A DNA stretch of 61,996 bases, the filler included, from Dugesia japonica (taxonomy: Eukaryota): assembly GCA_001938525.1 (NCBI GenBank). It is 6 parts of 6 records of this genome, joined end to end, with 100 filler letters (N's around TTAATTAATTAA, not from the genome) between each part and the next. Parts side by side here need not be neighbours in the genome. Positions count along the whole stretch, not along the records: positions 41,277 to 51,762 come from MQRL01587648.1; 5 more parts are not named here. One strand, 5' to 3'. Below are positions 6,335 to 61,996 of the stretch, piece after piece. Made by a program: the position numbers and the translations under genes. The notes beneath the pieces were generated by a model, which saw only the letters and a program-made list of their open reading frames with translations, had not been told where the DNA came from and made no database searches. Each line of letters starts with the position of its first letter. Positions within the stretch are counted from its first letter, which is position 1.

Positions 6335-6823
6335 CATACTATTGTAAATAATGTGAGCACCTTGGAATGATATGTATTGTCCATATTGTTCGAGAAAATT
6401 TATAATATCTGCAACTGTAGTTTCTAAAGGCATACCTTTGATTCTAACAAAAGTTCTTCCTAAATTAAGTTGATCAAGACATGGAGAGTTAATGACTGGA
6501 ATTTGATTTGGTAAAAGTGATATAAGATTTCCATTCATTGAAATTGTGGCTAAAATAGACGGATCGTCAATTGCCGGTGGAGAAGGAGCTGGAATCAACA
6601 CTGAATTCATAACTTGATTAACTTCGGCCGGTGTTGATTTGAATAATTCAATATAACGATTCCCGATATTTTCTCGGTGACTTTTCAATGCTTCCTCAGC
6701 GATTTCTTCACTTTCAAAAATGACAAATGCGTCTCCCGTTGCACGTCCGTCTTTGTGGTTGACAAAGAGTATCCCATCCACTCCGAATTCAACTTGACAA
6801 TTTGTTGAAGTAAAAAATTCCAA
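6335..6823 (-). CDS. ESRP1: Internal coding exon of an ESRP/fusilli-family splicing regulator (qRRM2 and start of qRRM3)
   Basis: GILFVNHKDGRATGDAFVIF...HRENIGNRYIELFKSTPAEVNQV and VRIKGMPLETTVADIINFL...GAHIIYN. Acceptor tttag at 6824-6828, donor GTAAGT starting at 6334; 489 nt, phase 0-0. The symbol denotes the family (ESRP1/2, fusilli). Confidence 0.9.
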
Positions 6824-10114: not shown

Positions 10115-10770
10115 ATGGATATAATCACAAAAATGATTTATAATAATCTAAGGAGTACTCTAAACAAACTGTGCTCAACATCAAATAATGACCAAGAAGA
10201 ATACATAAACAATAATCAAGAAAAAATAACTATAAAACTACCATTCTCGGAAGGATCTAAATTATTAAGATGCTTCCTCGTGAAATATTTTGATGAAAAT
10301 AAATTTCGATTTATTTTCACTTCAAAGAAAACCTCAAGTTATTTAAGCAACAAATCTTCTACACCAAAAGATTTGCTCACTAACCTAGTTTATCGATTTA
10401 ATTGTAACGGGTGTGATGCCATGTACATTGGAGAGACAAAACGTCATCTTTGCACACGTGCTAGCAAGCATATGCAATTGAGTAGGAAAAGTTCGGTTTT
10501 AGATCATACCTGTTGTTGCAAAAATAGAAAAAGCCAAATAAGCATTGATGAGTTTACTGTTTTGAATAGCGGTTTTGGTAACTATTTTGAAAGAATTGCG
10601 TGTGAGGCTTTTAGAGTTGGGTTGCATAATCCGATTACTATACTCAAATTGACACACATTTACTTTTAAATTTATTTTAATTTTATTTTATTGTATTGAT
10701 TACGTGACAGGTTTTATTGGCCAGTATATAAACAATTTCCTTATTTTAGAGCAGTAACTGATGATGGACA
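10115..10770 (+). mobile_element. Penelope-like element 3' fragment (GIY-YIG endonuclease)
   Basis: KLPF...LVYRFNCNGCDAMYIGETKRHLCTR...H...EAF...NP; a disrupted hammerhead half CTGATGA lies at 10758-10764. Confidence 0.85.
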
Positions 10771-11012: not shown

Positions 11013-11112
11013 NNNNNNNNNNNNNNNNNNNNNNNNNNNNNNNNNNNNNNNNNNNNTTAATTAATTAANNNNNNNNNNNNNNNNNNNNNNNNNNNNNNNN
11101 NNNNNNNNNNNN
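11013..11112. other. Artificial contig spacer
   Basis: 44 N + TTAATTAATTAA (stops in all six frames) + 44 N. Confidence 0.95.
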
Positions 11113-11203
11113 AATGATTTAACGCTGTTTTAGTAGTTAACGTCACTGTTAGACTGCAATTAATAAACTTTTTGACGGTAAATTCAATCAAAGTCAGAGG
11201 TGC

Positions 11204-11387
11204 TTTTATACCCCGACTACTTTTCCATTGGCTAACTATTTTTGTTTTTAGGTTCTTTCGTTTTATTGGTGTTAACTCTACAACTCTTTAATTTTTCGAG
11301 TTTTTCTCCGATTCCATTGGTGCCTATTTTTGTAGCACCTGCTGAATTTTCGGGCTTTGTTTTTCGTTTATCTTTTGGCTTCATTGG
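11204..11387 (-). promoter_or_regulatory. Pol II promoter, four CCAAT boxes plus TATA (probable LTR U3)
   Basis: ATTGG on + at 11227, 11265, 11316, 11383; TTTTATA at 11204-11210; same geometry as 46198-46397. Confidence 0.6.
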
Positions 11388-12094
11388 CCGATTCTAAACC
11401 CTTCTTTCCCGACCTTTCCGATAGAGATAACACTTTCCTGTTGCGAGAATCTATTCCCCCGTGTTATTCCCGTTCTGAATTTTCTTTCCAGGGCTTCCTC
11501 CGGTTTTCCTGAACCAGTATATTCCCTTTTAACCGATTTTTTGCTCAATTAAATTTCTTTTTCCCCCACAAAATTAATTAATTTATTTCGAAATTTTATA
11601 ATTACTATAATGTTTTTCTTGTTATTTCATCATAAACTAATATTTCTTTAATCAATTATTTGATCCTGTCNNNNNNNNNNNNNNNNNNNNNNNNNNNNNN
11701 NNNNNNNNNNNNNNNNNNNNNNNNNNNNNNNNNNNNNNNNNNNNNNNNNNNNNNNNNNNNNNNTATTAATTGTTCCATCTTCCACGTTTTAGTACTTCTT
11801 AATAACCCATATCTGGGCCCTTGAGTATATTTTCTGCCATGATCGGATGTTTCACCCCACCACAATAATAGAAAAAAAATTGGACAATGATTTATTGCCA
11901 CATATCTTTTCAATTCAATTCAAATAATGAGACAATTAAATTTTTCGACAATTCGACAGAAGTTGTTAACTTAAATAATTAAATAAGTAATTCGATTAAT
12001 TTCATAAAATAAAGTAGAAAATGTAAAAAATCAAATAATTAAATTGAAATTAATGACTTAATTGAATATATTAATTAATTTAATAAAATATATT

Positions 12095-16779: not shown

Positions 16780-17185
16780 TTAGAAGTTTCCAATGTCCTA
16801 TGGAAATATTCCATACTTAACTACCCATGACGCCCCAACTATCAGACACCCTGATCCATTGGTCAAGTCTAACGATACTATTCAAGTTGATATTAGCACT
16901 GATAAAATTATTAACCATGTTCAATTTGAAACTGATAACTTATGCTTCATCACTGGAGGTCACAATCAGGTACGTGTTGAAATCGTCATGAATAGAGAGA
17001 GACACATTGGTGGTATTGATATCGTTCATATTAGAGATAGTCAAGGTCAACAATTTGCGACTAGATTGACCAACGTTTTCATCATTGGTAAAAGCAATAA
17101 GCCTTGGATTTCATTGCTGAAGGGTGCTGGTTTAAGATTGAGTATTACCGAAGAATGAGACAGAAGATTGGAAGCTCAACATTGA
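16780..17185 (+). pseudogene. RPS4: 5'-truncated 40S ribosomal protein S4 (eS4) pseudogene
   Basis: C-terminal half of eS4 ([17 protein letters not shown]...[21 protein letters not shown]); in-frame TGA at 17156 in EE*DRRL (normally EERD); conserved G/R residues substituted; frameshift at the 5' edge. Confidence 0.9.
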
Positions 17186-20558: not shown

Positions 20559-21383
20559 TAATGTTTTAATTTAGCATGTGCTCTATCTACTCCAGTAATT
20601 TCTTTTTGAGCTGGAATGCGAGTATATTTATCATATGAAAGTTTTTCTTTATTTAAATCTTCAACTTAAGTTTTATAACGTTTAGCAGATAATTTTATTT
20701 TTTTACTTTTATCATCTGAATGAATTTTAATTACAATATCATCAATTATTTTTGGTTTTGAAACTTGATTAAATTGTTTTAAAACTTTATTATGTTCATC
20801 CCGCTCTTTTTGAAAAGCAACTCGCATTTCATTAATAGCTTTTAAATATGCATTTTTCTCATTATTAATTGAATCAATTAATAAAAGTCTACTTTCATTT
20901 TCTACACATTTTGAAACAATAAAAGTTAATGTTGCTTTAAATAAATTTTTATTATCTTCATCTAAATTAATAACATCTAATCCTATAAATGTTTCATTAA
21001 GAATATCTAAATGGGTTTTAGCAGTATCGCGTGATAGTTCATTATTTAAATATTCTTTTATTTCATCTAAATTTGACTCATCAAATGCGTCAAATTTCTT
21101 TATTGAATTTACTAATGTAAGAAAACTTAATTCACATAAAATCTTTTTCTTATCTCCCATTTTCTATAGAATAAATATGTTTCATTTCAATCTAACAACT
21201 TGGAAAAGTTACATCGTGAAAGTTATAATTATTTTGTATATTTTATGGTTACATTTATTTTAAATATTTAACATTTAACATTTTCATAAAAAATATTTAT
21301 TTTAATATTTTACATTTAAAATTTTCATAAAAAATATATAGGGGTATACCCATATGTCGGTATTACGGTATTATATCACTACT
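20559..21383 (-). mobile_element. Probable Maverick/Polinton terminus with first ORF
   Basis: Minus strand begins AGTAGTGATATAATACCG at 21383 directly against a microsatellite; ORF 20666-21160 reads on past one stop to the contig end. Confidence 0.45.
20666..21160 (-). CDS. Hypothetical intronless coiled-coil-like protein (element-borne, one premature stop)
   Basis: 164-aa ORF starting with ATG, long for this AT content; frame stays open after the stop. Confidence 0.5.
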   Translation of the reverse strand: MGDKKKILCELSFLTLVNSIKKFDAFDESNLDEIKEYLNNELSRDTAKTHLDILNETFIGLDVINLDEDNKNLFKATLTFIVSKCVENESRLLLIDSINNEKNAYLKAINEMRVAFQKERDEHNKVLKQFNQVSKPKIIDDIVIKIHSDDKSKKIKLSAKRYKT

Positions 21384-32036: not shown

Positions 32037-32486
32037 ATAAACGAGGAGGAGGAGCGGAGATCTTGGAAATAATTTTTTTGTAGTTTTAAAGATTTGGTTG
32101 TGGTTGGACAAAATTTTGCTCTATATATTGTCTTAAGGACTTATGAGTTTGGATGGATGGGTTTCGCTACAAATGTAGTGGCACACGGGCACAGTCGTAT
32201 GAGTTATCGTGGGTTGTTTTTAGGAAGGTTGTAGGTTTGTAAAAGGTTGATGGAATTTGTTGGTTAATGAGTTGTTGGAAAGGTGATGTAAGGGGGAAGA
32301 TGGTAATTGTTGAATGTGCTTTGATTTTCTATTTAAAATGCTAGAATTTGATTGGTTCGTTTTGTAAGTAGTATAAGTGTGTTTAAAAACATTTTCGTGC
32401 GGTGGAGGTTAGTATGTGTAGAAAAAGAATTAATTATCAGATTTTATAGGATTTATTTGAAATTTTTCTGTGGTTCTGACGTCATA
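32037..32486. repeat. Left arm of long inverted repeat
   Basis: Reverse complement of 40129-40573 with substitutions and small indels. Confidence 0.9.
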
Positions 32487-32809
32487 ATTTTTTGAACTCT
32501 TTATTTTGGTTAAAAATGCTGTATTTTGCTTAAATTGATGAATTTAATGAAAGTAATTGTATTTTTAAGTATTTGATGTATTTTTGGTTATTTTTTCAGT
32601 AATTTTGAACAATGAAGGGTTGTTTATTAATATTTTTGAATATGAAAGAGGGGAGTCTTGATATTTTTGATAACATTTTTGGCGGGAAATTCAAAAAAAT
32701 ATTTTTTGGAGGGAAATTTCAAAAAATATATTTTGGTTGGAAATTTTTCATTTAAATGGGGGGAAATCTTTTTAATATAAATAAATTAAATTTAATTTAA
32801 TTTAATTAG

Positions 32810-33110
32810 TTTATTTATGTAAGAAATGTCGTAGTCTTGATTTTTTGCATAAGATGGGAAGTCTCGATTTTTTTGAGGATATTATTACAAGATATCGGAC
32901 AGTCTTGATATTTTGTAAGATATTAATACAAGATATTGGACTGGCTTGGTATTTTACATGGTATGGGCAGTCTATATATTTGTGCATGGTATGGGTAGTC
33001 TTGATATTTTGCATGGTATGAGCAGTTTCGAAATTTTGAATGGAGAGCCTCTATATTTAGCATTGGATGTGACAGACTTGATATTTTGCAAGGTATGAGG
33101 CATATATATT
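32810..33110. repeat. ~29-bp minisatellite (gtcttgatattttgcatggtatgggca)
   Basis: About ten diverged units. Confidence 0.8.
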
Positions 33111-33479
33111 GCATTCATTTAAAAAAATCAAAATAGCGGCTATGTTGAATTATAAACACTTATTTCTAGTCAGAAATTTATTAAAAGTTCTCAGACTTGT
33201 GATTTTCAGTGTAAGTGTGTTGCATCCGTGTTGCAACTGAGTCGCATACTTATTGCATTTATTAATAAAAATTCCCAGGCACGTGATTTTCAGTGTATGT
33301 GTGTTGCAGCTGTTAAGCTTCTGAGTTGCATTTATGAAAATATATTTATCAAAGAACTTAAAAGAGATGAGTCTTTGTGATATTTGCATGATACAATATT
33401 CAAATAAAAAATTTTTTCCAAAATGATAAAAACATAGACCTTTTTCATAAAAAAAACATTAACTAGATAATTTTCAATA

Positions 33480-33735
33480 AAAACATTAGTGGTGCAATTT
33501 TAAATAGAAAATCTCATTAGCGATCTAATTTTTATTAAAAAGTATCATTAGTGTTGCAATTCTAAATAACAAATCTCATAAGCCATGCAACCTTTAATAA
33601 AAGGTATCATTAGTATTGTAATTATTAATAAAAAGTCTCATTAGTGTTGTAATCTTTAATAAAAGGTATCATCAATGTTGCAATATTTTATTAAAAAGTA
33701 TAATTAGCGAAGCAATGTCTAATAAAAAACATATT
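33480..33735. repeat. ~33-bp minisatellite (aaaaggtatcattagtgttgcaattttaataa)
   Basis: About eight diverged units. Confidence 0.8.
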
Positions 33736-34260
33736 AGTTGAGAACATATCTTAGAACAAAATGATAAAAACATAGGAATTTTGCATAAAAAGCATAAATT
33801 CATGGAACCTGTAAGACATATTTACCTAATATGACTATATAAAAAACGTATAAAAAATATTTTCATGATTGTATAGGGTTTATAAGTATATTATTTGCAT
33901 AGTTACCTTGTATTACTATTTACATATCAACCATGTATTATATGTTATATGAGTATATTATTTACATATCAATCGTGTAATAAGAGGTCACCATGCAAAG
34001 TGTATGCCTAATTGATGCGTGCGTCATGCACAATGCATGTTCGCACCATGTTTATGGGTAATTTAGATAACAAATTATATCATTTTAAACAAATTACAGC
34101 CATTCATATAAATTAAAATTAATAATAACCATTCATTTTCTTTAAAACATTTAATGACCAATAAAAACTAACAAATAACGAGTATGTATGTATCGCAGCA
34201 AGTATATAAACATAGCTTTTGTAAAATAAGTCACTTTTACATTTCAAAGTTGAAAACAAA

Positions 34261-34509
34261 ATGAACCAAATTGAAAGGGGAATTAAACAAATTACAGATG
34301 AAATTACCAGTGGATCCCTTGACGAAATTCAATTCATAAGCAGGATCGACAATGGTCTATTAAGAAAACATGATTATGTTGAACTCATTGTTCGTTCAAT
34401 ATTCATGGAGTAAATTAAGGAAGAAGTAAAGAAACAAAAAAGAAATAAATTTATTGATGGTATTTTATTGACATCTGTTGTGATATTTTATTTGTTTGGT
34501 CGAAATTAA
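34261..34509 (+). pseudogene. Small element-borne tail-anchored protein gene with one premature stop
   Basis: CCAAT and TATA upstream; 83 codons with TAA at 34411; basic patch followed by hydrophobic C-terminus; AATAAA downstream. Confidence 0.55.
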
Positions 34510-34849
34510 TGTAATTATTATTGTTTAGTTGTTTAATAAATAGATTTGAATAATAATTTTGTTTTTTTTCTTGCATTATTTATATAAAAAACTTNTAAGT
34601 AATAGTAATAAGTTATTATAATAGTTTCTTTTAACTACAATTGGTTTATGAGTACATTATTTACATAATAATCACGTAGTATTGTAAATTCATGCTATGT
34701 TCACAAAATTAAATAAATAATATAAAATAATAAAGTACTTTAGTTTCTTAGTATTACTAAAACAGAAAAAATGAAGACATCTTGATAATAAAACACATAT
34801 TGTTTTTATAAAACAAATACATGCAAATAAATATTTCATGTTTAATGTT

Positions 34850-35045
34850 GATTCTTTTATTGTAAACCACTATATAGTGTTCTCTACATAAATTTGTTGT
34901 ATGAGTATTGACGATTATTGCATTGTTTACTGAAATAATATAATTTAAGTAACATTGATGTCCTCCGTTCAATCTAAATAGAATTAAACAATAAATTAAA
35001 CAATAACTCTTACTTTATTACAATTATTTCAAGAATACATAGCAT
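34850..35045 (-). pseudogene. Truncated adenovirus-type (adenain-like) Polinton protease
   Basis: ATG lies 3 nt after the MCP stop; AIIVNTHTTNLCREHYIVVY resembles the IVNT...PGEHW catalytic-His motif; 40-nt intron 34974-35013; no Cys motif visible downstream. Confidence 0.6.
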
Positions 35046-35048
35046 TGT

Positions 35049-36287
35049 TTACACNAATACTGTTCCGTTTACTTTAGCCTGAATTTCTTTTTCAAATACT
35101 CCATAAATTATACCATATGCCGATGTTTTTAAAGCTTTGGCAAACTTGATATCCAATCTCAAATTTCCTTGTTGAGCTAATTGACTCTGATTTATATCAA
35201 AATCTGGAGTAAGAATAAATGTCAAAAAATGATAATTATCCTTAAAATCTCGAAGTGTTATTCCACAATTCATATTCTTATCCAAATATCCCATATTTCG
35301 TACAATAGATTGCATATATGTTGTGGCATAATTATCGTTTTGTAAAATCCTGAGTATATATTTCTCGATAATTAGTGTTTTTTGTCAAGGAAAAAGAAAT
35401 AGTATCTAGATTTTGAAATGTTGAACTCAAGCTTTTATAACTACCATTATATTGTTCACCGCTTTGAAATGTAACCAAATTAAAGCTAGGTAATCGACGA
35501 TCACCAAAGATTTGTTCCTTATAAAACGATGAACTATCTTTAATAATTGCAAATGTAATGACTTCCTTGATTCTTATTGAATAAACAGCATTTTGTGTTT
35601 TTAGTCCCATTTGATGAGCAACTAGTACTGAGGGTTCAACGCGTACACGTCTAACCATTAATTTTGCATCTAGTAATACATATTTAAGTACATTGGCTGC
35701 AGATTCCAAACAATTGTTAGCATCTGTTTGCTTCAATAGATTATGAACATTGACACTAGGAATAAGGTATTTTGGTTGATCCATGAAATCAAGTTGCAAT
35801 GAACCACATAGTGATATTTGTTTTGATTTCGCAATAGACTTTTTTCTATCTGCTTCTGATTCATATTCCAATGCTGAAAAATATATATTCTTACTATCAC
35901 CATTATAATTTATTATAGTTTCAATAATTGCTTTGTGAAGATAAGATCCATTNNNNCCTTCAATTTTGAAATTATTAAACGAAAGAATTACATCCTTAAA
36001 AAGTGTATGCAACATATAGTTACTAGGAATCAAATCATCCTTATCAGTCAAATCTTTGCCATCTTTATCAACTACCTTTACTTTAATATACAATAAAGTA
36101 TAATTCAAATCCAAAATTCTGTTTGAGATCCATTTATAAAAATCTCTACATCGCTTTGTGATTCAGAAAATTAATTCATAGGGAAATACCTTCGAATTTA
36201 CCATATTCAATTACAGTTTGTGGAGATGGTCGATAAAAAATACTTAATTCAGTTTTACCGCAAATCTTTTTTCACATATTGTTCCAT
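35049..36287 (-). pseudogene. Polinton major capsid protein (double jelly-roll), frameshifted
   Basis: CGKTELSIF.RPSPQTVIEYG, DLNYTLLYIKVKVV, NYMLHTLFKDV, QPKYLIPSVNV, GNLRLDIKFAKAL. Confidence 0.85.
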
Positions 36288-36706
36288 GTCCTCTCATTCG
36301 TTTGTTTATAAGTGATACATGAGATTTCTTTCGTTTTCTACTATTTTGTGGTGTTATGTCTTGATTTGATAGCATATTAGTTATTTCAGATGGTATTTTA
36401 TTAGTTAAACTTTGCTGTAGTATACCTACTACTTTTGGAATCATGCTGGTAACTCAACTAGTTACTGAAAAAACTACATTTCCTAGCTCAGACAATGATT
36501 AGATTTCAATATGGATAGTATTTTCCATCATTAGTTAGTATATTCTGAGCTGTTTTCATACCAAAAGAACCAATACGTCTAAGAATAGGCAAACCAAATC
36601 TCTCTTTTGTTTGTAACCACCCAGATTCATACTGTTTTCCAAGAAAGTAAGGTAATTCGACACCTGCTTGACTAGTACTATACAATGATACAATATTAGG
36701 GTTCAT
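36244..36706 (-). pseudogene. Polinton core-like basic protein between the capsid genes
   Basis: YSTSQAGVELPYFLGKQYESGWLQ (QxGxG-type motif) and basic tail RKRKK...KRMRGHG; frameshifted. Confidence 0.65.
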
Positions 36707-37813
36707 TATTAATTTTTCTAAAATCTAACGTTAAATGTGGTTTTGAATCTTCAGCAAAAATGACTAGTTTTCCACTATCATCACGTATATTAATTTCTAT
36801 ATTTTTTATATATGACGAAGAAATAAGTAAATACATCGAATGATCAACAATTATTTTTATTACGTCATCATTATCATGTTCCTCTATCCATACTGCTTTC
36901 AATAANNNNNNNNNNNNNNNNNNNNNNNNNNNNNNNNNNNNNNNNNNNNNNNNNNNNNNNNNNNNNNNNNNNNNNNNNNNNNNNNNNNTCTAGGTTTTTT
37001 ATTACTTTTATATAGTAGTTGTTTATCATTAAATTGTATTTGAGTATATTGCGATTCTTTTAATCCTAATGTTTGTGTTAAGATTTTATCGAATTTAACA
37101 CTTTTAGTTCTATATGCTAATGTAAATTCAAGTACTTCATCTTGCTTTAATGAAAAAGTTTTAAATAACTGTGGAAGTTGTTTCTTAAAATAGTCATTTA
37201 ATTAATTTAAATCCTTTATATACAGTTCAGATTTGAATTGAAAAGAATGTTTAGTTACAATCGGATAATAATATTTAATTTTTATTTTTTCAATAGATTC
37301 GTCGTTTTTAAAGTGTTGAAAGCCAAGAAAAAATGTTTTATCTCCAAAATTTTTACTAGCATCAAAAATTAAGTTAATATCCTTACTTTCAAATACGTCA
37401 CTAAAATATGAAAATCTCTTTATAGTTTCCAGATTTTCAAATAATAAAATGTGGTATGTAATATCACAAGTAAAGACTAAAACATTTTCTTTCGATAATT
37501 CTATAACTGTTTCCTTGTTATTTTTATAATTGTTTTGAGAATTAACAGTTAGAAGAACTTTCATTTCTTTATTGTTAACATCAAGTATTAGTTCCTTCTC
37601 AATTATTGTAAAAAATTCATAATCAATCCTAGATTGACTGTAAATTGGCATGGCTGAATATACAAAGGTGAAATCCATGAAGGCTACTTCCTAACTACCA
37701 TCCATGTAAATTGGCTTTTGAAGCTCAACAATGTAATTACTAGCAACATTATTTGGATGAATTAGGGAACTACTATTATTACGTAAAAGTGTATAGAAAT
37801 TATTTGATTTCAT
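36696..37813 (-). pseudogene. Polinton minor capsid protein (penton)
   Basis: N-terminus FYTLLRNNSSSLIHPNNVASNYIVELQKPIYMDGS*EVAF and C-terminus YIKNIEINIRDDSGKLVIF...LTLDFRK; stops and a gap. Confidence 0.8.
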
Positions 37814-38039
37814 CTGAATTTTTGTCTTGTTATTTTATTTGTGTTGCTACTATTCAAATTGGTTTTTGTATTTATATCATTTTATTTAATATTGTTTATT
37901 CTTTCAGATACTTTTGATTAAAATAGAATAGATCTTGTAAATCTAATGAATACAACGATAGAAGACAAAAATATACTTGTAAAATTTATTAATCATTTCA
38001 ATTAGATACATTTACCATAAATCATCAATACCATAGCCT

Positions 38040-38279
38040 TTATATGCTCTTGTTGGAAATCTTTCCAACTTTGGCTTGTTCAAATTGTATAGTAGATGGA
38101 CAGATAACAACATTTTCGTCTGTCTTTTCGATTTTTTGGGCTGCTTTTATCAATTTTTCTATGCTTCAAAACTTGCCAGGTTTTTTGGATCCGTCTATAT
38201 TGTCTTCATTTTTATCTCCAATACAACAATCTGATGCAAACTTCAAGTCAAAATTAGGTAATGATTGCAATCCACCCAT
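38040..38279 (-). pseudogene. Small protein with N-myristoylation motif upstream of the penton (one premature stop)
   Basis: MGGLQSLPNFDLKFASDCCIG...KF*SIEK...NKSI*, 80 codons. Confidence 0.5.
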
Positions 38280-38785
38280 TGTTCATTATTTATTGTAATT
38301 TTTAAATATGAATATTTTAAGTATTAAAAATATGAAAATAATGGAAGAACAATTTGTAAACGAAGTTTGATTTTTTATTAATTTTATAAATAAATTTAAT
38401 TTAGGAATGCTTATAGACATAATGGAGAAACGAAGGAGGCTTGATGAAGAAAAAATCCCATGCTTCCGGACTGTATTGTCAATGAGTTCATGGAAGCTGG
38501 ATTTTGTGAACCTGATTAGATCGGGTGCGCAGAGTTTAACCTCTATGCCACCACGCAGAACCATCTGGATGATTTTAATTGATATAATGCCTATTTTTGT
38601 TATCTTAAAAAAAATAAATGTATTATTCTTAAGTCTTTGTTTTTTATTTATTTAGTTTTATTTATTAGGGTTTATTTATTTATTTAGATTTTTTTATTTA
38701 GTTTTTAAACAAAAATAAAGTTAACAAGATTTTCTTTCATAAAAATTTATTTCAATAAAAAAAAATAACATCAAGTAAACCAATT

Positions 38786-39180
38786 TTAAATCGTCTTTGC
38801 AATATTTTTAAGTTTCCAAATGACTACTACTGAATTAATGGACTTCTTAAAACCTTTTATTTCCACTTGAATTATATTTTGACTATCGTATTCATATTGG
38901 TTCTCGTCCTTTTCTTTAAAATCTATATAAATTACCTCATTGACCTCAATTTGTCTGCTTAATCTTGCAAACATGGCTTCCAGTACATTTCTATCCTTCT
39001 TATGAATTCCAGATAGAAGCAAACTAAATTTGGGTTTTTTTTTCTAAAATAATAAGTTATAATGAAATTAAAAAAATTACTTTGTAGTCATAGATAATTG
39101 GGGTCTTCAAAAAGAACAACTTGTAATTATGGAAATCTGTAATTTTACCACGTTCCACAGTTATTATTGATACGTTTTCT
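38786..39180 (-). CDS. Spliced accessory ORF of the Maverick-like element (start codon unclear)
   Basis: A 37-nt GT-AG intron at 39044-39080 joins ENVSIITVERG...YDYK in frame to KKKPKFSLLLSGIHKK... Confidence 0.45.
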
Positions 39181-39381
39181 TTATAGAGTTAATTTTCTTG
39201 CGTTTTTGTGTTGTAAAAGTGATTAATGTTATGTAAAACTTTGATTTTATACTAGTTGCGATACATATATACTCGTTATTTATGAGTTCATATTGATAAT
39301 TATTTACTATAATTGATATGATTGGCTATTGGGTTTATATAAATAGGACTGTTTGTTTTAAAAAACTTCACTTTTTACAAA

Positions 39382-39860
39382 ATGAATACATGTGAAATTT
39401 TGTTTTTAGAAAACACTGTCCAAGTAGATTACGAGCTTGAAAATGACATTAACCATGAAGAAATAGAAAATATAATGGAAGCTAATGAGAAAGTAAAAAT
39501 CAATATTAATGACGAAATAAATGAAGAAACAACTATTGAAGATGACAAAGATGGAAGATACATGTCAAGATAATGGTAACGATAGTGGTTATTTTGAAAT
39601 TGAAGTAAAAAATTATGAAAATTATTATCTTAAAAGTTTAATTTATTATTATTTAATTTAATTATTTTTTAGAATTAGCGTAGGAGATATTACATGACGA
39701 TTTCCCAGAATTAATTCATGAATATATGCTGTTGATTATGATTGAATATTTTGAGCATTTATTTCAGAAAAAAGCAATAGATATGTTTCAAGTTATGGAC
39801 AATTTCATCATAGAACTTCATGCAGGTTTCCATTTCAATGAAAACAAGAACCATTAGGAA
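39382..39860 (+). pseudogene. Acidic accessory gene with probable intron 39605-39672
   Basis: ATTGG and TATATAAA upstream, ATG at 39382, E/D-rich, disrupted frames, AATAAA downstream. Confidence 0.4.
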
Positions 39861-40045
39861 GTCTTAAAAGAAAAATTTTTGAAGAAGACTGAATATCATA
39901 AAAATTTTTTAATTAATAAATGTTTTATTGGATAATTGTTTTCTTTTTTTTAAAAGTAAATAAATACAATTTTTTTATAATACTAAGTAAACAAAAACAA
40001 AATAATATTTTAAATAAATTAATTTATGATAACTAATTTCATTAA

Positions 40046-40573
40046 CATACATTTTGAACGGTGACCTCTTATTACACGGTTGATATGTAAAGAATATACT
40101 CATAAAACATATAATACATCATGAAAATATGACGTCATAACCACTCGACAGAAACATTTAAAATAATGTTATAAAATCTGATAATTAATTCTTTTTCTAC
40201 ACATACTAACCTCCACCGCATGAAAATGTTTTTAAACACTCTTATACTACTTACAAAATGAAACAATCAAATTCAAGCATTTAAAATAGAAAATCAAAGC
40301 ACATTCAACAATCACCATCTTTCCCATTACATTACCTTTCCAACAACTTATTAACCAACAAATTCCATCAACCACTTACAAACCTACAGCTTCCCTAAAA
40401 ACAACCCACGATAACTGGGTGTGCCACTACATTTGTAGCGAAAACCATCCATCCAAACTTATAAGTCTCTAAGACAATATATAGCGCAAAACTTTGTCCA
40501 ACCACAACCAAATCTTTAAAACTACAAAGAAATTATTACCAAGATCTCCAGCTCCTCCTTCTCCTCGTTTTAT
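40046..40573. repeat. Right arm of long inverted repeat
   Basis: 40129-40573 pairs with 32037-32486; 40046-40130 pairs with ~33860-34007. Confidence 0.9.
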
Positions 40574-41176: not shown

Positions 41177-41276
41177 NNNNNNNNNNNNNNNNNNNNNNNN
41201 NNNNNNNNNNNNNNNNNNNNTTAATTAATTAANNNNNNNNNNNNNNNNNNNNNNNNNNNNNNNNNNNNNNNNNNNN
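41177..41276. other. Artificial contig spacer
   Basis: N run + TTAATTAATTAA (41221-41232) + N run. Confidence 0.95.
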
Positions 41277-45380: not shown

Positions 45381-46197
45381 GGGATGCAGACGTAATTTCC
45401 CCCTGGAAATAATTTTAATGATTTGACATATGGTTTTCATGAAATTTAAGGGAATTATGAAGATTTTGTGAATTTTAATGGATAAATGTGATTTTCAACA
45501 ATTTTTAGTGGTTTTATGGGGATTTTGTTAATTTTCAGAGATTTGTGGGTATTTAACGAAAATTCAGGGTTAGTGGGAGTTTTAATGAAATTTAAGGAAT
45601 CATGGAGATTTTTATATGATTTATTGGTATTTTTCGGTAATTTTATTGAAATTGTGAGGTCTTTCTAGAATTTTTAGGGTATTATGGGTCTTCATGAAAT
45701 TTAAAGATTCATATAGATTTCATGAAATTTTTAGGGGTTTATGGGGTTTCAAAAAATTGTTGGGGCGAAACACCCGCTAAACGAGAACAAACTGAAAATT
45801 AAATCCAAGGATGATAATATCAGGACCGTATAATTACTAGTAACAGAATGTAAAGTATGGGATCAACATGGAAAGAAAAACGAAATTAAATCAAATATAA
45901 ATGGGAAATGTAAAGTAACTTACGTTTGGAAATTAAAAAAAATAAAGAAGTAATAAGAAACAACAAAGAAAAGCAGTATGGAAAATAATTAATTAGCGAA
46001 AGAAATTAATTAATTTTAAAATAAAAAAGAAACGAAATTAGTGAAAAACCTGTTTTATCAAGATAACTTCGGTCGGAGAAGGCGGAAAGAATCGGGACAA
46101 GAAAAAATAAAGGGAGAATAGTACGACGCAACTTAAATTACAAAAAAGAAAAACGTATCACCTTCCAGAAGGGTACCACAAGCCTTCCAAGATCCGG

Positions 46198-46397
46198 CCA
46201 ATAGGAAGCCTGAAAATAAAAATAAAACAAAAAATAAAAACTCACATGATAGTCCAAAAATAACGGTCAATGGAATTGCAGAAAAGTCGGCGAAACTCCA
46301 GAAAAGTGGTACCAACGCCAATAGAATCGTGCGAGTTTGAATTAAAAATATCGGGCCAATAATAATCAAGTTGGGGTGCCTCAGAAACCCTATAAAA
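46198..46397 (+). promoter_or_regulatory. Pol II promoter, four CCAAT-type boxes plus TATA
   Basis: CCAAT at 46198, TCAAT at 46267, CCAAT at 46318 and 46356, TATAAAA at 46391. Confidence 0.65.
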
Positions 46398-46901
46398 AGG
46401 ACCTCTGTCTAAGCAGAAAAATAAATATAATTTCTTAAAAAAACCCAACTGCTAACTGGTTATTAAATTGTGGATCCAATCTCAACTGACAATTCAAAGG
46501 TATTCATTAAGATAGTACTAAGTCGTTAAATAAACCGTATTTATAAAGGCAGAATTCGTTATCAGAGGAAAAAATTTGAAATTTAGTAGGAAAAAATTTT
46601 TAGTCTACGAGGACAATCAGCGCTATCAGTTATTAACCTGTTGCAGAAATTCCGTGAATCAATTATAAAAGTAAAAGATTCTTTTTTGTTATGTTGATAA
46701 TTAGTAAAATTTTATGTATAACCTATTATAATAGTTGTAATAGTTGAAATAATAGTTGCAATTAGCAAAACTAATTGCTTTAGCGATATCTGTGTAGTTA
46801 AGGGCAGCATGAAAATAGATATTATGGTTTTGCTTTTGCTCCCTCTTTTCTGTCTTCATGCAATATAATCTAAATTTATTAACTCTATTTTGTTCCTAGG
46901 T

Positions 46902-47168
46902 ATGGATTCTATCTGGATACGCGTCGTTGATAGGAGAACCCGTAGATTAGTACTACGCCGTTATCACAACCCGGATAATCGGGATGCTGGTATCTTGACA
47001 GACCGGTCAAACTTACCACCGATCGAATCAATCGTGGGCCGCATTACTGATTTCGGAGAACGACAGCGCTACCAGGCCTGGACAGGTCCGGATCGTACCA
47101 TCGCGACCCCATTTTCCTATCAACCTGCCACTCCCCCCGGCTCCGGCGATACAAGCATTCATCGCTAA
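46902..47168 (+). CDS. Cassette 1: hypothetical Arg/Pro-rich protein
   Basis: Acceptor ttcctag ends at 46899, ATG at 46902, AATAAA near 47274. Confidence 0.5.
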   Translation: MDSIWIRVVDRRTRRLVLRRYHNPDNRDAGILTDRSNLPPIESIVGRITDFGERQRYQAWTGPDRTIATPFSYQPATPPGSGDTSIHR

Positions 47169-47573
47169 CCTCCTCTGGGGAGTCCGGGATCCGAACGGGA
47201 TAACAGATATCGAAAACACTGCCCCTAACACCGACACTACTATTAATCAACCCTAATTTGTTGTTTATTTAGAAATAAATAGGTGTGTTAGCTTCGACTA
47301 TTTTTAACTGTTCTTGTGAATCAACGTACTAAGTAAATAATTCAATAATGATTTCTAATAAAAATTTCCTTGTAAAATTAAAATACTACTTATAACTAAA
47401 GAGTTCTTCTCGATTTTTATTTAATACAATGGGTAACCATATCTGTTCATTGCTTCTGGTATTAGCCCATGTTGAGTCAAGTGTAATGCTTTAACTGTGC
47501 TTTTATTTCAGTGCATTCGTCCTTAAATAGATCCCAGGCACCAAATAAGAAATTACGTGAGGATAGTGAGGAT

Positions 47574-47870
47574 ATGGCACTCACCTGGGATCTTTATAGA
47601 TTAGCCAAAAGAAGGTGGGAGGCAGAGACTGCCGTGGCAGAAGCCAAGGTAAAACGCTATAAGCGGAAATGCCTAAACTATAAAACAGAGATGGATGCCA
47701 CCCAGAATCAAGAGAGGGTGTGGAAATCGCAAGTTGAAACCTTCGCCACGATGATTAAGTCGTAACAAGAGCGTGAGAACCATCTCGTCGAGAATATAGC
47801 GAAGTTACTTGCTACGATTTCACTAGCCCCACTCTTGATTGACAAGGGCACTCAGACGTCTCGCTCCTGA
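47574..47870 (+). pseudogene. Cassette 2: coiled-coil protein with C-terminal DKGTQT (premature TAA at 47763)
   Basis: Acceptor tatttcag ends at 47511, ATG at 47574, frame continues to TGA at 47868, AATAAA near 47900. Confidence 0.5.
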
Positions 47871-48033
47871 GTTACTCTATCGTATATGTAGTTGCTAATA
47901 ATAAAATATTTTTGTTGTATCGTTTCTAATTCGTTACTTTAACGCTTAATTTGTTTGGTGACGATTTAACTATGCTTTTCATTCAGAGCCACGAATTACT
48001 TTTCCCAGCAGTATCAGGAGGTGCCATGGAATC

Positions 48034-48369
48034 ATGCGCCACTTGTTGATCGATCGACACCTAAAACGTAAAACCGATAGGGCACTTATGAAGCACCTCG
48101 ACCAACGGGATCAACTGATAAAAAAATTAGATCTCATCGTAAAAAAACAGAACGACCTTGCGATTCAAACCAAAGCTCTGGAAGCCGAGAATAAACAATT
48201 GTTGTTAAGAAAAATTGAATTCTTAAAACAATACATTGCTGATCTGTCCCGCAGAATAGTACACCTGTCGGTAACTCAATGGGATGACGATGACGACATC
48301 GCAGTCTTTAATTTCGTGGTGACAGACGGAGACCAATGGTTAGATCCTGAAGCACTGGACTTAATTTAA
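48034..48369 (+). CDS. Cassette 3: coiled-coil protein with acidic/aromatic tail
   Basis: Acceptor ttcattcag ends at 47987, ATG at 48034, 111 aa, AATAAA at 48379. Confidence 0.55.
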   Translation: MRHLLIDRHLKRKTDRALMKHLDQRDQLIKKLDLIVKKQNDLAIQTKALEAENKQLLLRKIEFLKQYIADLSRRIVHLSVTQWDDDDDIAVFNFVVTDGDQWLDPEALDLI

Positions 48370-49389
48370 ATTTTTTTTAATAAAATGTCTCTATTACCAA
48401 GTGTATTTTCCGTCTTTCAATAGAAAAACAAATGAGGGAAAAATCATTGAACCCGAAAATAAAGGTTTGTCGGTGCGTACCTTCCATTAAGTGTAAGGTC
48501 AACCGCCGCAAACTGAGAACCTACCACAAGGACGGTAGGGTAAATTATTGAAAGGGTTTCCCTGAGGGCTGTTTTTCTAAAATTATCATAAATAAAATAT
48601 TTTAAAAAAAGGAAAACCGATATTTTTAAAAAAATATATTTTATTTAAATGTCTCAGATTATTTTTTTGAATACTGTGGATTGTTCTTCATCATTTTTCA
48701 TTTTAATAAAAGACTTGTAATAACCAATAAACAATTTATGGAGACTTGTGAGATTTTGAATTTAACTAATAATAATTATTTCTTTACTTTACATCNGTAA
48801 TATTATTATAATTATTATTAAACATTTAAAGTGGAATATTTTTAGGAAACCATTGAAAATAATAGAAAATTAAGTAAAAGTACTATAAAACCCTGTAAAA
48901 CACATTAAAATATCATATAGAATACCGTTATAAAATCTTTATAAAATTCTTCATTTCGAGGGGAAATTATTTCCAAGAGGAAATTAATTCCAAGGGGTAA
49001 TTATTTCCGAGGGGAAATTATATCCAGGGAAAATTATTGCACCAACCCGTATTTCTAAGGAAATAAGAAAAATAATAGAAGTTTTGAAAGTAATGAAACT
49101 GCACTAAATTGAGTGTTAAAGAAATATTTATTAATTTAATTGAAATAAGCTAGTATTTTGCAAGATGATTTTCATTGGAGTTGTTTGAAGATTGATAATG
49201 AGTTTTATTAAAAAACTTAATTTTATAAAATTTTACGAATCGGAGCTTGTAAACTTCTTGAAACTGAAAACTAGAGAGTTTGTTTGTAACTATTGAAATT
49301 TATTTAAATGTTTAATCACTAGGGCATTCTTTTTTAACCTTCTAAAATGAAAAATGTGACTTTTTGACCAATATATCGACTTAATAATG

Positions 49390-51762: not shown

Positions 51763-51862
51763 NNNNNNNNNNNNNNNNNNNNNNNNNNNNNNNNNNNNNN
51801 NNNNNNTTAATTAATTAANNNNNNNNNNNNNNNNNNNNNNNNNNNNNNNNNNNNNNNNNNNN
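51763..51862. other. Artificial contig spacer
   Basis: N run + TTAATTAATTAA (51807-51818) + N run. Confidence 0.95.
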
Positions 51863-51964: not shown

Positions 51965-52810
51965 TGTCAGATGTAGCACACAGAGGCAAAATCAGAGAAA
52001 TCCAAGACTAAATTGTTAAAAGACCATGTAGCAGATCGAAATGTGGGAAATAGATAAAAAGACACTGAAGGGAAAACAACAACTTGACTAACCCTAAATG
52101 AGATGAATACAAAAATATGGGAGATCCACAAATTTTTATGTCACACGGGAACAGAAAAAACCGAGGACTACATATGCACTAGATACACAGGAGACCAATT
52201 GAGAGAAAAAACAAGAAAGTTGGTACGAACATGTATGTAGTTCCAAAAGGTAAAAGTTGACACAACTGGCACGACAGAGGTCACATCTTGGTCTGAAAAG
52301 TACGAACCGTTCGAGGTTATGTTTGTCGATATTGGTGGACCGCTAAAAATAACAAAAGGAAATAAACGGTACATACTGGGTATGATTGACCAGGACGCTA
52401 AATATATCAAATTAATAGCATTGAGCAGACAGGGTGAGAACACAATTTGGGAAAACATTTGGAAACAGTGGATCTTAAAGTTTGGATGTCCTAGAGAGAT
52501 TCGATCAGATTGTGGCAGAGTATTCCAGGCACAAGAAATGAAAGATTTTGCAGAAAAGTTAAGCATCGTGTGGGAGGACAACAGGAAGGATAAGCAAGAG
52601 TCAGGAAACAAAGAAAAGAATAGAAATAAAGACAAAGAGGCAATTTCAGTTAGAACATAACGAGAAAAAGGACAAGATCGATATGATGGACCGTATGAGG
52701 TGGTGGAACTGATCTATGATAGACGGTATGTGTTAAAGGGCCAAGAGGGACAGAAAATAACACGAATCGTGGAGAAACTTAAAAGGGCTCTAAAGTNGGG
52801 GATGTGAGGA
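51965..52810 (+). mobile_element. Gypsy integrase remnant with PPT and LTR start
   Basis: IWEIHKFLCH.GTEK, PFEVMFVDIGGP, WILKFGCPREIRSDCG, RYDGPYEVV; purine tract followed by TGTGAG at 52803. Confidence 0.85.
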
Positions 52811-55953: not shown

Positions 55954-56058
55954 TGTTAATGATAAATTACTAAAATAATATTTATTCAAATAAAACAAGT
56001 TCAAATTTTCTTCTTCTAAAATCTGAATATTTAAACACTTCATTTATATTATATCACA
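55954..56058 (-). repeat. 3' LTR (~105 bp)
   Basis: TG...CA direct repeat of 60356-60463. Confidence 0.9.
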
Positions 56059-59000
56059 TCCCTCTTTTATCATTCGAATTCCCGGAATTTGGTTGGTTTA
56101 CGTCTTTATCTTGTAGGATTCCTTCTTCCTTGTCTCTCGCTCGTTAATTGTTCCGGTTTGATTATTGAACTTCTTTTTGATTGGCTTATTATTGTTGATT
56201 TCTTATGACTCTTTTTTCTTTCTCCTCTAGCTTTTCTATTGTAAATATTGTTAGTTGTTTCATTTTGTGTTATTCTCATACCCATTTCAGCGAATGGAAT
56301 GAAATTTATCCAATTTGTGAGAAATTTTAAGCTGGTTGCAAAAATTCTATCTTTTCCAGTTCTAAAGAATCTTTCTACTATGGCGTTCTCTTGATGATAT
56401 TATGAGCTTGCAAAGGTTTGATTTATTTTAAGAACTTTACAAAATTCTTCCATAAAATTGTTTTTGAACTGACTTCCATTATCGGAGTGAATTATTTTTG
56501 GCATTCCAAAGATAGTAATCCATCTTTTAAATAATTTATTAATTACTTGTCTTGATTTGATGCTTTTAAGATGGATTAACATGGCATATCTTGAAAACAC
56601 ATCTATCACACCTAAAATATATCTATAACCTTTACATTCTGGTAATGGTCCGGTGATATCTATGTATATTTTTTCAAACGCCTCATTAGCTACAAGATGT
56701 TTCTCAGGAATGTAGTTTGAAATTATTCCATTATTTCGATTTTTGCATGGAATGCACTTATCAATAAAGAGTTTTATCTCTTTACTCATATTCTTCTAGT
56801 CATAATAATTCTGAATTAATTCCTTTATTTAGCCCATAATGTTTTGATAATAACCCATTATTTCCTTTTTTCTTTGAGATGTAAAATCCTTTTTTAGAAT
56901 TCGAATAATTGGCTTCTTATCATTTTTTCTCGATCAGTTTCACATTTCTTCGTTTCTTTGGTTCATTATGTCAGAGTTCACATTATTCACATTCCGGTCG
57001 GCTCATACACTCTGCGTTTATGTGTAATCTGCCAGTTTGGTGTTCAATATCAAAATCATATTCCTCTAATTGTGTAATCCAAGTAAAATACTGTGATGTA
57101 TTTGGATTTTCCGAACTTTTTAGCCTCAATAATGCTTTATGATCAGTTCTTATTTTGAAACTTTTCCCCAATAAATAATGCCTAAATTGTTTTACAAAAA
57201 CATAAACAGCTAATAATTCCTTACTAGTAACCCAATATTTCAATTCTGAATTTGTCAGTTTCTTCGACGCATATGCGATAACCTTTTAATCTCCATTTTG
57301 AACTTGGCTTAAGATTCTTCCAATATGACTGTGACTTGCATCTGTGTCTAATATAAAAATACCTTCTTTCAGAGGATAAACTAGAACTAGAGCTGTTGTT
57401 AGAAGTTCCTGTATGTTTTTAAAGGTTTCATTTCCTTCAGCATCCCAAATTATTGGTTTTTTGCTGTTTTTCCCATTTATTTTTTGTTTGTCTCGTTTCA
57501 GTATATTTTCTAAAGGTTGAACGACATACGCCAAATCTTTTATAAATTTTATATAATAGTACTGGAAAGCTATGAAAGAATGTAGATCTGAGTGACACCC
57601 TGGTTCTAACCAATTTCGAACTTTTTCTATTTTTATTGTATCTATTTTTATACCTTCTGCCGTAATTCTATGTCCAAGATATGAAATTTCCTTTTGCAAA
57701 AAATTACATTTGCCAGGTTTTAATTTAACTTCTGATTCTTCTATTCTAGCTAAAACTACTTCCAATCGACTGAGATTTTGGTCATAGGAGTTTTCAAATA
57801 TCAATACATTGTCAAGATAAATAAGACATTGTTCCGAGTTTTCATTTTGCAATATCAGATGCATATGTCGTTGAAATGTTGCTGGGGCTGAACTCAGGCC
57901 ATATGGCATTCTATTAAATTTATATTGTTCTTTCCTAGTAGAGAATGCTGTTTTTGTTTATCCGCCTCATTTACTTCAACATTATAATATCCATTAGATA
58001 AGACTAAAACGCTAAATATCTTTGCTCCACACAATGCATCGAAAAGTTGAAAAGTTTCTGGAATTTGATATATTGGTCTGATTGTGACTAAGTTTAACTG
58101 CCGGTAATTGACACATAATCTTATNTCACCATTGGCTTTAGTGATACACACTAAATGTGTATTCAACGGACTTTCACTTTTCCTGATTATATCTTTTTTC
58201 AATAAATCTGCAACTAAATTATAAACTTTATTCTCAAGTCTTATCGGTATTCGTCTAGATTGTACTGCAACCGGCGCTTCTTCTTTAGCGACAATGTAAT
58301 GCTTTAGTTTTTTACAATGATCAATATCCGTGTCGCATTTACTAAATATGTTAGCATATTTTAATATTAATTTCTTAACCTTTTTTATGTTTTAAAGGAA
58401 AGCCGTCTTCTTTTTCGATTTTATCAATCAAGCCGTTTACATGAGACACCTCTAATTTGTCTGAATAAACATTTCTGATGAACTCACTTTTTTCTTCCAA
58501 GATTTCTAAGCTACCCATTCTTGTACCTTTATAAATTTTTCTTTCAGAATCTGATAAATTGTAAAGTCTTATAAGAATCTTTCCGTTTTTGTCAACAGAC
58601 ACTATCGAATGAGCTGACAAGATATCTAAATTTGCTAGTTTATCTTTATAACCTACAAAGATTTCTTCTTTAATTTTGAATTCATCACAGTCAACTGATT
58701 TACGTACAAAATATTCTTTAAACTTTTCTAGAACCACAGTTTCGTCAAAAATGATGCGTAAAGAGCAATATTGAGTCTCAATGTTTCTAGCACCGGAATT
58801 CTGACTCCTAAAATTGGTGCTTGTTAGTTTTCATTTCCATCGTCACAAACTTTTGTTTCAAATGGTATAGCTTGATTCCTGATATATACAGTCATCCTGT
58901 GGCACAATTTGTATTCTGTGTGTTTTCAGTGATTTAATTCCAATGATAATCTTTGGGAAAACGTTTTCCACCACTTTAAATTCTAGTGTCAATTCTTTTT

Positions 59001-60340
59001 CTCCAATTACTAGTTCAACCTTCTCAACCCCCGCGATTTTCATAGGTGATCCGTTTGCATAGTACATTCTTTCTGTTTTTTTGAAAAATTTAATCCGTTT
59101 GTTACTTTTTCTCAATTCACATAATAAATTATAATTTATTACATTTGATTCTGCCCCACTATCTATTAGTGTCGCTACCCATTTTTGTTTTATTCTCACT
59201 TGGACCAAAGGCTTATTTTGAGAGAATTCTGAGTGATTTTTTGAAATCAGTGTTTTTGCTTTATTTTTGAATTTTGGTATGGCTCTTTGCTCGTTGATGT
59301 ATTGATCTGAGTTGACTACTTCTTTAGTATAACAATTATTTTTTTTTACATTTTATGGTTTCGAATTTTTCTTAATTATTTCGTTCAATGCATGATTGGT
59401 CCCCGTGCGGGACATTTCTGATCTCGTTGAAATCGATCTGATTTTGTCAAATTCCATATTTTCACTATCATTGTCATTAATATATCTGACTTTGTGCATA
59501 TTTCTTGTTCAGCAAAATCTATATAAATGGCCAATCTTTTTGCATTTTTTACACATAATCGGTTTTTTACAATCTTTCACAAAATGGCCAAAATTGTCAC
59601 AGTTAAAGCATTTTATATCTTTAATGTGGATATTTCTATCCCGACTGTCATTAATAATCCTTGTGTTATTCACTCCAGATCTATTTCTTCCGTTCTCTAT
59701 ATCTCTAGATAGCCTGGCTATCGTTTGTTCCAATTCTGCCACCTTCTGTTTTAGTGAACGAATTTCATCTGATAAGTCGTGTTGTGTTTTAATATGTATC
59801 AGATTTTCCTTACTTTCGTTTTTAACTTCTTTTTTTGCAAAGCTATAAGCTTCGTTTAATCATTCTGGCTTAAAAAATTGAACTGCTGCNNNNNNNNNNN
59901 NNNNNNNNNNNNNAAATAAAAAAGCGAATATTTAAGTCTTTTCTCTGTTCTCGCTGTTCAATTCTGGTTGACTTTTAAATAAATAAACTCTCAGTTTTGT
60001 AATAAATTCTCATAAAGAGAGATCATTTTGCTTAATTTGTAAAAGTTCGGTAATATGAGAAATCCTCGAATCTTTAACTTTGTATAATTCTACAAATTTA
60101 TTACTTAACAAATTAAAGTCACCCTTAACATTCTGGTAATCTNGTTAAGAAAATAATTCATATTGAGCATCTTGCTCTAAGGAATTAATAAAATATCTAA
60201 TTTTTTCCTTACCATCTTCGATCTTTAAATTAAGAATGTGGTTCTTAAATCCTTGCAGGTGTTTGCAGAATCATCTCCAATATGAAAACTTGGCAGCTTC
60301 TGAACCATGTTGAATAAATTTAATGAAAATATACTGAATT

Positions 60341-60355
60341 CTGCTCCTGACGCCA
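60341..60355 (-). other. Primer binding site, probably tRNA-Leu
   Basis: TGGCGTCAGGAG immediately after the 5' LTR, near-complementary to the tRNA-Leu 3' end CTCCTGACACCA. Confidence 0.7.
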
Positions 60356-60463
60356 TGTTAATGATAAATTACTAAAATAATATTTATTCAAATTAAATAA
60401 GTTAAAATTCTTCTCTTCTAAAATCTGAATATTTAAACACTTCATTTTAATATTACATCACTA
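60356..60463 (-). repeat. 5' LTR (~108 bp)
   Basis: Direct repeat of 55954-56058, adjacent to the PBS. Confidence 0.9.
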
Positions 60464-61926: not shown

Positions 61927-61996
61927 TGTTGGGGTGAAACACCGGATTAAGGCAAATAAAATGGCGTAAGTAAACACGAAATTCGAAAAATTTACA
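61927..61996 (+). mobile_element. Start of another copy of the TGTTGGGG LTR-like family
   Basis: TGTTGGGGTGAAACACC matches 45758 at 16 of 17 nt. Confidence 0.55.

Follow-up and report, generated by a model that had tools for sequence, protein, structure and literature searches.

A repeated 2.8-kb unit in Dugesia japonica DNA with three candidate terminal-exon cassettes: possibly a solo long terminal repeat

In complex retroviruses, one promoter and one splice donor serve several acceptors, from which small accessory proteins are obtained, and an open reading frame (ORF) can lie in the long terminal repeat (LTR), as exemplified by HIV nef, MMTV sag, and foamy virus tas/bet. The adenovirus major late unit combines a shared leader with alternative acceptors and alternative poly(A) sites. 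Published accounts describe Burro/GYPSM1 of planarians as a giant gypsy-like element with an internal region of up to 25 kb and a total length of over 30 kb, which implies LTRs of several kb, and with a giant gag-env-pol polyprotein containing MATH, BIR, BCL2, and ankyrin domains (PMC6431247); the planarian host genome is over 70% A/T (PMC11410931), and plant LTR elements with additional ORFs include Grande gene23, which has its own promoter (PMC7264820). Here, we analyzed a stretch of 61,996 nucleotides labeled Dugesia japonica (the window; all coordinates are positions along it, with the strand in brackets), and we describe a 2.8-kb repeated unit at 45758–48578 (+), in which a CCAAT/TATA block is followed by three cassettes, each consisting of a splice acceptor, an ORF starting with ATG, and an AATAAA signal. 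Our preferred reading, to which we assign a probability of about 0.5, is that the unit is a mobile 2.82-kb solo LTR of a gypsy/retrovirus-like element in which one leader is spliced to any of three terminal exons.

Such a unit would share with complex retroviruses the single promoter, the donor with its several acceptors that lead to small accessory proteins, and the presence of an ORF in the LTR, whereas the retroviral mRNAs use a common poly(A) site and depend on the internal genome; in the present unit, an AATAAA accompanies each ORF, and the whole unit would lie inside the terminal repeat. The adenovirus major late unit follows the same expression logic, but it belongs to a DNA virus, is over ten times longer, and encodes virion proteins, and no homology is expected. 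Compared by description only, Burro/GYPSM1 is similar in its multi-kb LTRs (as implied), its accessory ORFs, and its AT-rich host genome, and it differs in that its extra domains are located in the polyprotein or in an upstream accessory ORF, while an LTR-internal spliced cassette is not described in the available part of that account (PMC6431247). The Grande gene23 type has accessory ORFs of unknown function and a dedicated promoter in common with the unit, but its ORFs lie between pol and the 3′ LTR, often in antisense orientation, and with one gene per promoter. We did not find the layout described in the literature searched, which was available in part; the original Burro paper, its supplements, or the Repbase entries may describe it.

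The window DNA is AT-rich, with a GC content mostly of 0.15–0.35, and contains many transposon fragments and assembly gaps. The unit starts with a 17-nt terminus with TG first (45758–45774 (+)), which is common to three units of the window, and continues with a promoter-like block (45932–46400 (+)). A putative leader exon without ATG, recognized by motif only, spans 46421–46499 (+), its start being placed about 30 nt 3′ of the TATA box, and a putative AT-rich intron (46500–46899 (+), GC content 0.28) ends at acceptor 1. ORF1 (46902–47168 (+), 88 aa) is basic with a Pro-rich tail and is followed by AATAAA at 47274. Cassette 2 (47512–47765 (+)) has its acceptor at 47511, the 63-aa and likely helical ORF2 at 47574–47765, and AATAAA at 47900, and cassette 3 (47987–48369 (+)) has its acceptor at 47986, the 111-aa ORF3 at 48034–48369, and AATAAA at 48379. 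The three GC-richer blocks with acceptor, ATG-ORF, AATAAA, and AT-rich spacers, on which the original prediction was built, are thus all in the sequence; two of its acceptor positions (46899 and 47511) are exact, while the third AG ends at 47986, and the 47987 given earlier is the first exon base. The coding blocks have a GC content of 0.42–0.53, compared with 0.28–0.31 in the spacers, the distances from stop codon to next ATG are 405 and 268 nt, those from AATAAA to next acceptor are 237 and 86 nt, and a purine is found at position −3 of each ORF's ATG. An out-of-frame ATG at 48026, 5′ of ORF3, is present in this copy, and the three contigs that cover 48026 differ there.

According to the preferred reading, transcription from the CCAAT/TATA block would start near 46420 and yield a leader of about 80 nt with its donor at 46500; this leader would be joined to one of the three acceptors, and the chosen terminal exon would set the poly(A) site. 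The result would be three monocistronic mRNAs, each likely encoding a small accessory protein.

To evaluate the arrangement by shuffling, a cassette was defined as an acceptor, an ORF of at least 60 aa, and an AATAAA, and three cassettes had to lie within 1.9 kb. None of 10,000 shuffles reached three: among 5000 whole-region shuffles, 4937 contained no cassette and 63 contained one, and among 5000 shuffles in 120-nt blocks, none, one, and two cassettes were found in 4762, 235, and 3 cases, respectively. These figures have to be read with the fact that the 3′ untranslated region (UTR) limit, originally 120 nt, was widened to 140 nt once the initial run had missed ORF2, and the threshold is thus fitted to this locus. 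By the same definition, the rest of the window contains five cassettes on both strands. An arrangement of ORFs, acceptors, and AATAAA signals that arose by chance in a neutral GC-richer repeat would be in line with the high frequency of AATAAA and pyrimidine tracts in this DNA (four acceptor-like sites per kb), with the lack of a homolog or Pfam family for any of the ORFs, and with the lack of transcripts in three RNA runs, but it is contradicted by the shuffles, by promoter boxes that are kept at 62% identity, and by an ORF divergence that is gap-free and shows a synonymous excess, and we regard it as highly improbable.

The promoter-like block differs in one detail from the four CCAAT boxes plus TATA box that had been reported before: three exact CCAAT boxes (46198, 46318, 46356) and a one-mismatch box (46267) lie upstream of the TATA box at 46391, whereas a fourth exact CCAAT is found 3′ of the TATA box, at 46476. 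Three CCAAT boxes in 46151–46400 were reached by 35 of 2000 shuffles. The 17-nt terminus recurs with one mismatch at 61927 (+), as already noticed, and with three mismatches at 11862 (−), which had escaped notice; no match was obtained in 100 shuffles. All three termini are preceded by AT, and the left ends are TG or TT. At 61927–61996 (+), a third unit begins with the same terminus (76% identity over 37 nt) and is cut by the window end. The match on the minus strand belongs to a diverged relative (11113–11864 (−)) that is cut by an assembly gap at 11112, which hides any cargo. In this relative, four exact CCAAT boxes (11387, 11320, 11269, 11231) and a TATA box (11210) superpose on those of the unit: positions 45932–46377 align in register to 11652–11210 (−) with 62% identity (281 of 456 columns, E 7e-25), and the alignment score of 160 compares with at most 73 for other stretches of the window. 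Clusters of at least three CCAAT boxes followed by a TATA box occur three times in the window, and the unit and its relative account for two of them. That the boxes have been kept despite 38% divergence is the strongest indication that the block may be a functional promoter. A further copy of the three cassettes was not found in the window.

The points that weigh against the solo-LTR reading concern the public contigs, the splice sites, the RNA, and the ends of the unit, and they are given from here on beside the evidence that they qualify. A public run index returned 24 rows with two small-share holders, and four of the 24 runs were aligned at 82% identity. Run X1, which consists of contigs that may represent RNA or DNA, gave 945 contig pieces at 82–100% identity (48 at 99% or more, 123 at 95–99%, 373 at 90–95%, and 401 under 90%) that covered 30 of 30 bins; it probably contains DNA, because one contig crosses the donor unspliced. 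A repeated unit with 945 pieces of graded identity and with three termini is therefore a dispersed multi-copy family, and the single-copy sequence that would have spoken against the original prediction was not found; summed contig depth gives no copy number. Over 46378–48353, nine mostly coding bins have depths of 22–364 and ten others 0.09–284, seven of the latter being at or below 16 (p 0.015; 0.09–16 over the putative intron), and two non-coding bins at 47314–47521 are deep as well. That the depth reflects spliced RNA was considered and set aside, as the depth is low in both 3′ UTR bins and high in one spacer bin, and as one contig is unspliced across the donor.

Among eight listed contig pieces, four that cover mainly ORFs differ by 94 substitutions over 593 nt and are free of gaps. 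In the ORF1 region, a contig from a relative has 22 substitutions and no gap over 46953–47098, and diverged gap-free contigs cover 47504–47669 and 47646–47799 in cassette 2 and 47979–48105 in cassette 3. Listed pieces over the leader region and over the ORF3 3′ end and UTR contain three gaps each; two upstream non-coding pieces are gap-free. No ORF contains an indel among the 12 listed of 20. Of the 40 substitutions listed out of 268, 19 are in ORFs, and 9 of these 19 are synonymous, with a p of 0.013 at 22% expected that weakens to 0.08 at 30% expected, the rows not being independent and the eight ORF1 substitution rows coming from one or two contigs. Coding constraint is likely from these sequence comparisons, and purifying selection on the ORFs is only suggested; the ORF regions seem more constrained than the spacers, and neutral evolution of the ORFs, which had been named as a possible refutation, looks unlikely. 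Two pieces start to align at the pyrimidine tract, 8 nt before the exons of cassettes 2 and 3 begin, and have 15 and 47 unaligned letters before that point. Five contig joints of X1 within 46032–48462 skip 117, 105, 198, 189, and 90 nt, all of them multiples of three, and two of the joints are in non-coding DNA; none is of the GT..AG type, and hence they were not counted as splicing. In one of the contigs, 105 nt appear to be skipped in frame over the ATG of ORF2.

The proposed donor near 46500 does have an AAG|GT, but its intron side is weak, it is one of 16 donor-like words in 46400–48400 (loose pattern), and at the matching place of the diverged relative, where the alignment is poor and cut by the gap, a donor is not clearly present. 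A donor-like word directly follows acceptor 1 (46897–46905), which is the layout of a recursive splice site, and acceptor 1 could re-splice to cassette 2 or 3. All three acceptors are in one phase, and no stop codon interrupts the 0, 20, and 15 codons that separate acceptor and ATG, which is awkward for a non-coding leader and hints at a coding first exon, with a short N-terminal peptide fused to three alternative bodies and the cassette ATGs as internal codons. Such a first exon would also agree with the relatives being gap-free between acceptor and ATG, with three of the four listed changes 5′ of ORF3's ATG being synonymous in the ORF3 frame, and with the in-frame skip across the ORF2 ATG. 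However, there is no ATG within 46271–46690, nor in the approximately 97 nt past the TATA box of the relative, and every ORF's ATG has the purine at −3; we consider the coding exon quite unlikely. As to the earlier proposal of a non-coding leader, the shared acceptor phase leaves room for a coding one.

The predicted splicing of leader to cassettes did not find support in RNA. We used three raw RNA runs with 35.7 million reads and 5.2 billion letters in total, 6–25% of each run, which match by species label only and may come from animals that lack the family. Only 28, 81, and 32 reads were aligned per run, nearly all of them on an A-rich stretch near 45950 or on the flanks; the depth was zero over 46066–47417, which includes promoter, leader, and ORF1, and at most 0.6 on the ORF2 and ORF3 bins, and no splice junction, start site, or end site was detected in any of the three runs. 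No RNA run was given as a holder in the run index, which counts neither for nor against expression. Either the family is silent in these RNA samples or it is absent from those strains, and for ordinary whole-sample RNA it is likely that the family is either silenced or active in a small number of cells. Planarian LTR elements are reported to be repressed by the PIWI-interacting RNA (piRNA) pathway and to be de-repressed when this pathway is knocked down (PMC8532177), and such a repression would fit the silence if the host is a planarian. Overall, the unit is a real mobile cassette that is likely coding and is silent in these libraries.

The RNA also bears on the option of an operon, in which a single transcript would be cleaved at every poly(A) site and a host spliced leader would be trans-spliced onto the downstream ORFs. 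The distances from AATAAA to acceptor (237 and 86 nt) and the AT-rich spacers fit this, as flatworm operons with spacers of up to 300 bp and spliced-leader trans-splicing in Schmidtea have been reported, together with a flatworm spliced leader that ends in AUG (PMC12582326). However, this AUG would not be in frame at any of the three acceptors, a cis donor is present at 46500, and no reads support the operon, with next to none on the unit; we therefore judge it decidedly unlikely. No spliced-leader RNA gene was found in the window.

Regarding the ends and the class of the element, the left end at 45758 agrees with the original prediction, whereas the right end is probably at about 48578 and not at 48400. 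The unit starts with TG, and its order is LTR-like, as about 630 nt separate the left end from the promoter and about 200 nt lie between the last AATAAA and the right end. An identical 5-mer at 45753–45757 and 48579–48583 is a candidate target-site duplication, which is suggestive only, as the frequency of the 5-mer per position is 0.95% in the window and 1.9% in the right flank, with an estimated chance of about 5% when positional freedom is included. The last segment (48370–48578 (+)), which may be U5-like, is structured (folding z −2.06; 5 of 200 shuffles were as good) and shared with a more abundant repeat set: over 48458–48577, X1 is far deeper than in the interior, with a summed depth of 1941 at 48458–48561, compared with 22–364 over the ORFs. 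To these features, on which the LTR identity would rest, one has to oppose that there is no CA at the inferred end of the window copy (48577–48578), and that nine contigs depart from the window sequence after 48577, which makes the end of this copy and its duplication uncertain and suggests a family end a few bases beyond 48577. By eye, no purine tract was seen 5′ of the unit and no tRNA-binding site 3′ of it, which is expected for a solo LTR. The gypsy regions of the window had no match to the cassettes or ends of the unit, and a parent element was not found in the window. The unspliced RNA of a full-length parent would have to read through the internal poly(A) signals, and an LTR with three such signals needs a mechanism for this. 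A search for the terminus motif gave matches in nine viral contigs, which we took as chance 17-mers, while the 3′-end motif had no match in metagenomes, and no Rfam match was obtained.

An element that has no RNA intermediate can carry introns and more than one poly(A) signal without harm, and the same three-gene unit could reside on a DNA-level element, either a rolling-circle Helitron/Helentron or a non-autonomous cut-and-paste element. Helitrons have an abundant structured 3′ end with a hairpin and a terminal CTRR, a canonical 5′ TC, and no target duplication. The A-T that precedes all three left ends, the structured 3′ 120 nt that are far more abundant than the interior, and the weak consensus past 48577 (agreement 0.69, nine contigs), which can be read as a hairpin with a Helitron-type end or as an imperfect inverted left end, are compatible with such an element. 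However, the left end is TG or TT where a canonical Helitron has TC, the unit has a candidate 5-bp duplication, neither a transposase nor RepHel is linked to it, and no inverted copy of the 17-nt terminus (up to three mismatches) was found near 48578; the local alignment of the two ends of the unit scores only 16, which speaks against the terminal inverted repeats of a Ginger-like DNA transposon. We regard a DNA-level element as rather unlikely and prefer the solo LTR.

As stated in the original prediction, the encoded proteins are not recognizable. No homolog was found for ORF3 (the searches included one with 0 hits among 1.84 billion sequences at E 0.001) and none for ORF1, and searches without large protein sets gave no significant homolog of ORF2. 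Pfam and PHROGs yielded sub-threshold or coiled-coil hits only, the best being phrog_20344 (E 1e-4, unknown function). For ORF1, a weak match to a viral contig (30% identity, E 7e-4 among candidates only) and GAF-like Atlas rows (up to 0.90) were treated as chance, as was an ORF1-like stretch of 28 aa at 38019 (E 0.004), which contains a stop and lies on the opposite strand to the local ORFs. The structure prediction that had been proposed for the ORFs was informative for ORF3, whose single-sequence model (pLDDT 80) combines a 72-residue helix with a beta-hairpin and an acidic tail, and for which a fold search returned generic long helices and coiled coils only (best Z 7.4); the ORF1 model (pLDDT 43) was unreliable and too poor for a fold search. 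No hydrophobic segment was found in ORF1, ORF2, or ORF3. Judged from its model, ORF3 is likely a coiled-coil adaptor without a membrane segment, and the same is likely for ORF2 from its sequence. Our best guess, by analogy to retroviral accessory proteins, is that ORF2 and ORF3 may bind element or host proteins rather than being enzymes.

In a wider and more tentative picture, which we consider possible, a retroelement lineage of invertebrates moved a complete multi-gene accessory unit into its LTR, with one promoter, one leader, and three terminal exons, polyadenylated separately, for novel selected proteins; each solo LTR would then be a self-contained three-protein cassette, and related families would share promoter and 3′ end and vary the cargo. 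In general, solo LTRs are regarded as promoters and nothing more. If three selected proteins are indeed made by alternative splicing and polyadenylation, "dead" LTRs could supply element proteins in trans, a class of small genes would go unnoticed in repeat-masked annotation, and the question would arise how full-length RNA passes two or three poly(A) signals in its own terminal repeat.

The surroundings of the unit and other parts of the window contain further elements. Inverted arms of another repeat (45393–45415 and 48964–49036) enclose the unit, and RNA reads with loose ends were found on both flanks, which therefore belong to a dispersed repeat; the unit probably was inserted into the arm-bearing repeat. 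A 164-aa ORF without Pfam hit at 20666–21163 (−), with an acceptor 3 nt 5′ of its ATG and AATAAA just past the stop, is a single cassette of similar build. A palindromic short spacer inside N gaps at 11060–11075, 41221–41233, and 51808–51819 is an assembly artefact, and near-identical local duplications (D4, D5, D8) may be artefacts as well. A decayed gypsy-type element of 4.5 kb at 55954–60460 (−) has hits to reverse transcriptase, RNase H, and integrase and lies between direct repeats that are about 92 nt long and 93% identical. An 8.5-kb element at 32056–40549 is bounded by inverted arms (131 and 265 nt, 91–94% identity); its broken minus-strand frames at 35050–36160, which had no hit in the searches made, presumably resemble the Polinton/adintovirus major capsid protein. 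Four stretches at 4616–5179 (−), 52319–52660 (+), 10115–10669 (+), and 6281–6610 (−) include a Tc1-type transposase fragment and an integrase fragment, both with Pfam hits, as well as what we take to be a Penelope GIY-YIG-like fragment and an ESRP-like RNA-recognition motif (RRM) exon, which have no Pfam hit. Finally, a partial intronless RPS4 copy at 16793–17158 (+), with Pfam hits and up to 65% identity to animal RPS4 proteins, of which no match was labeled as a flatworm protein, is likely a retrocopy.

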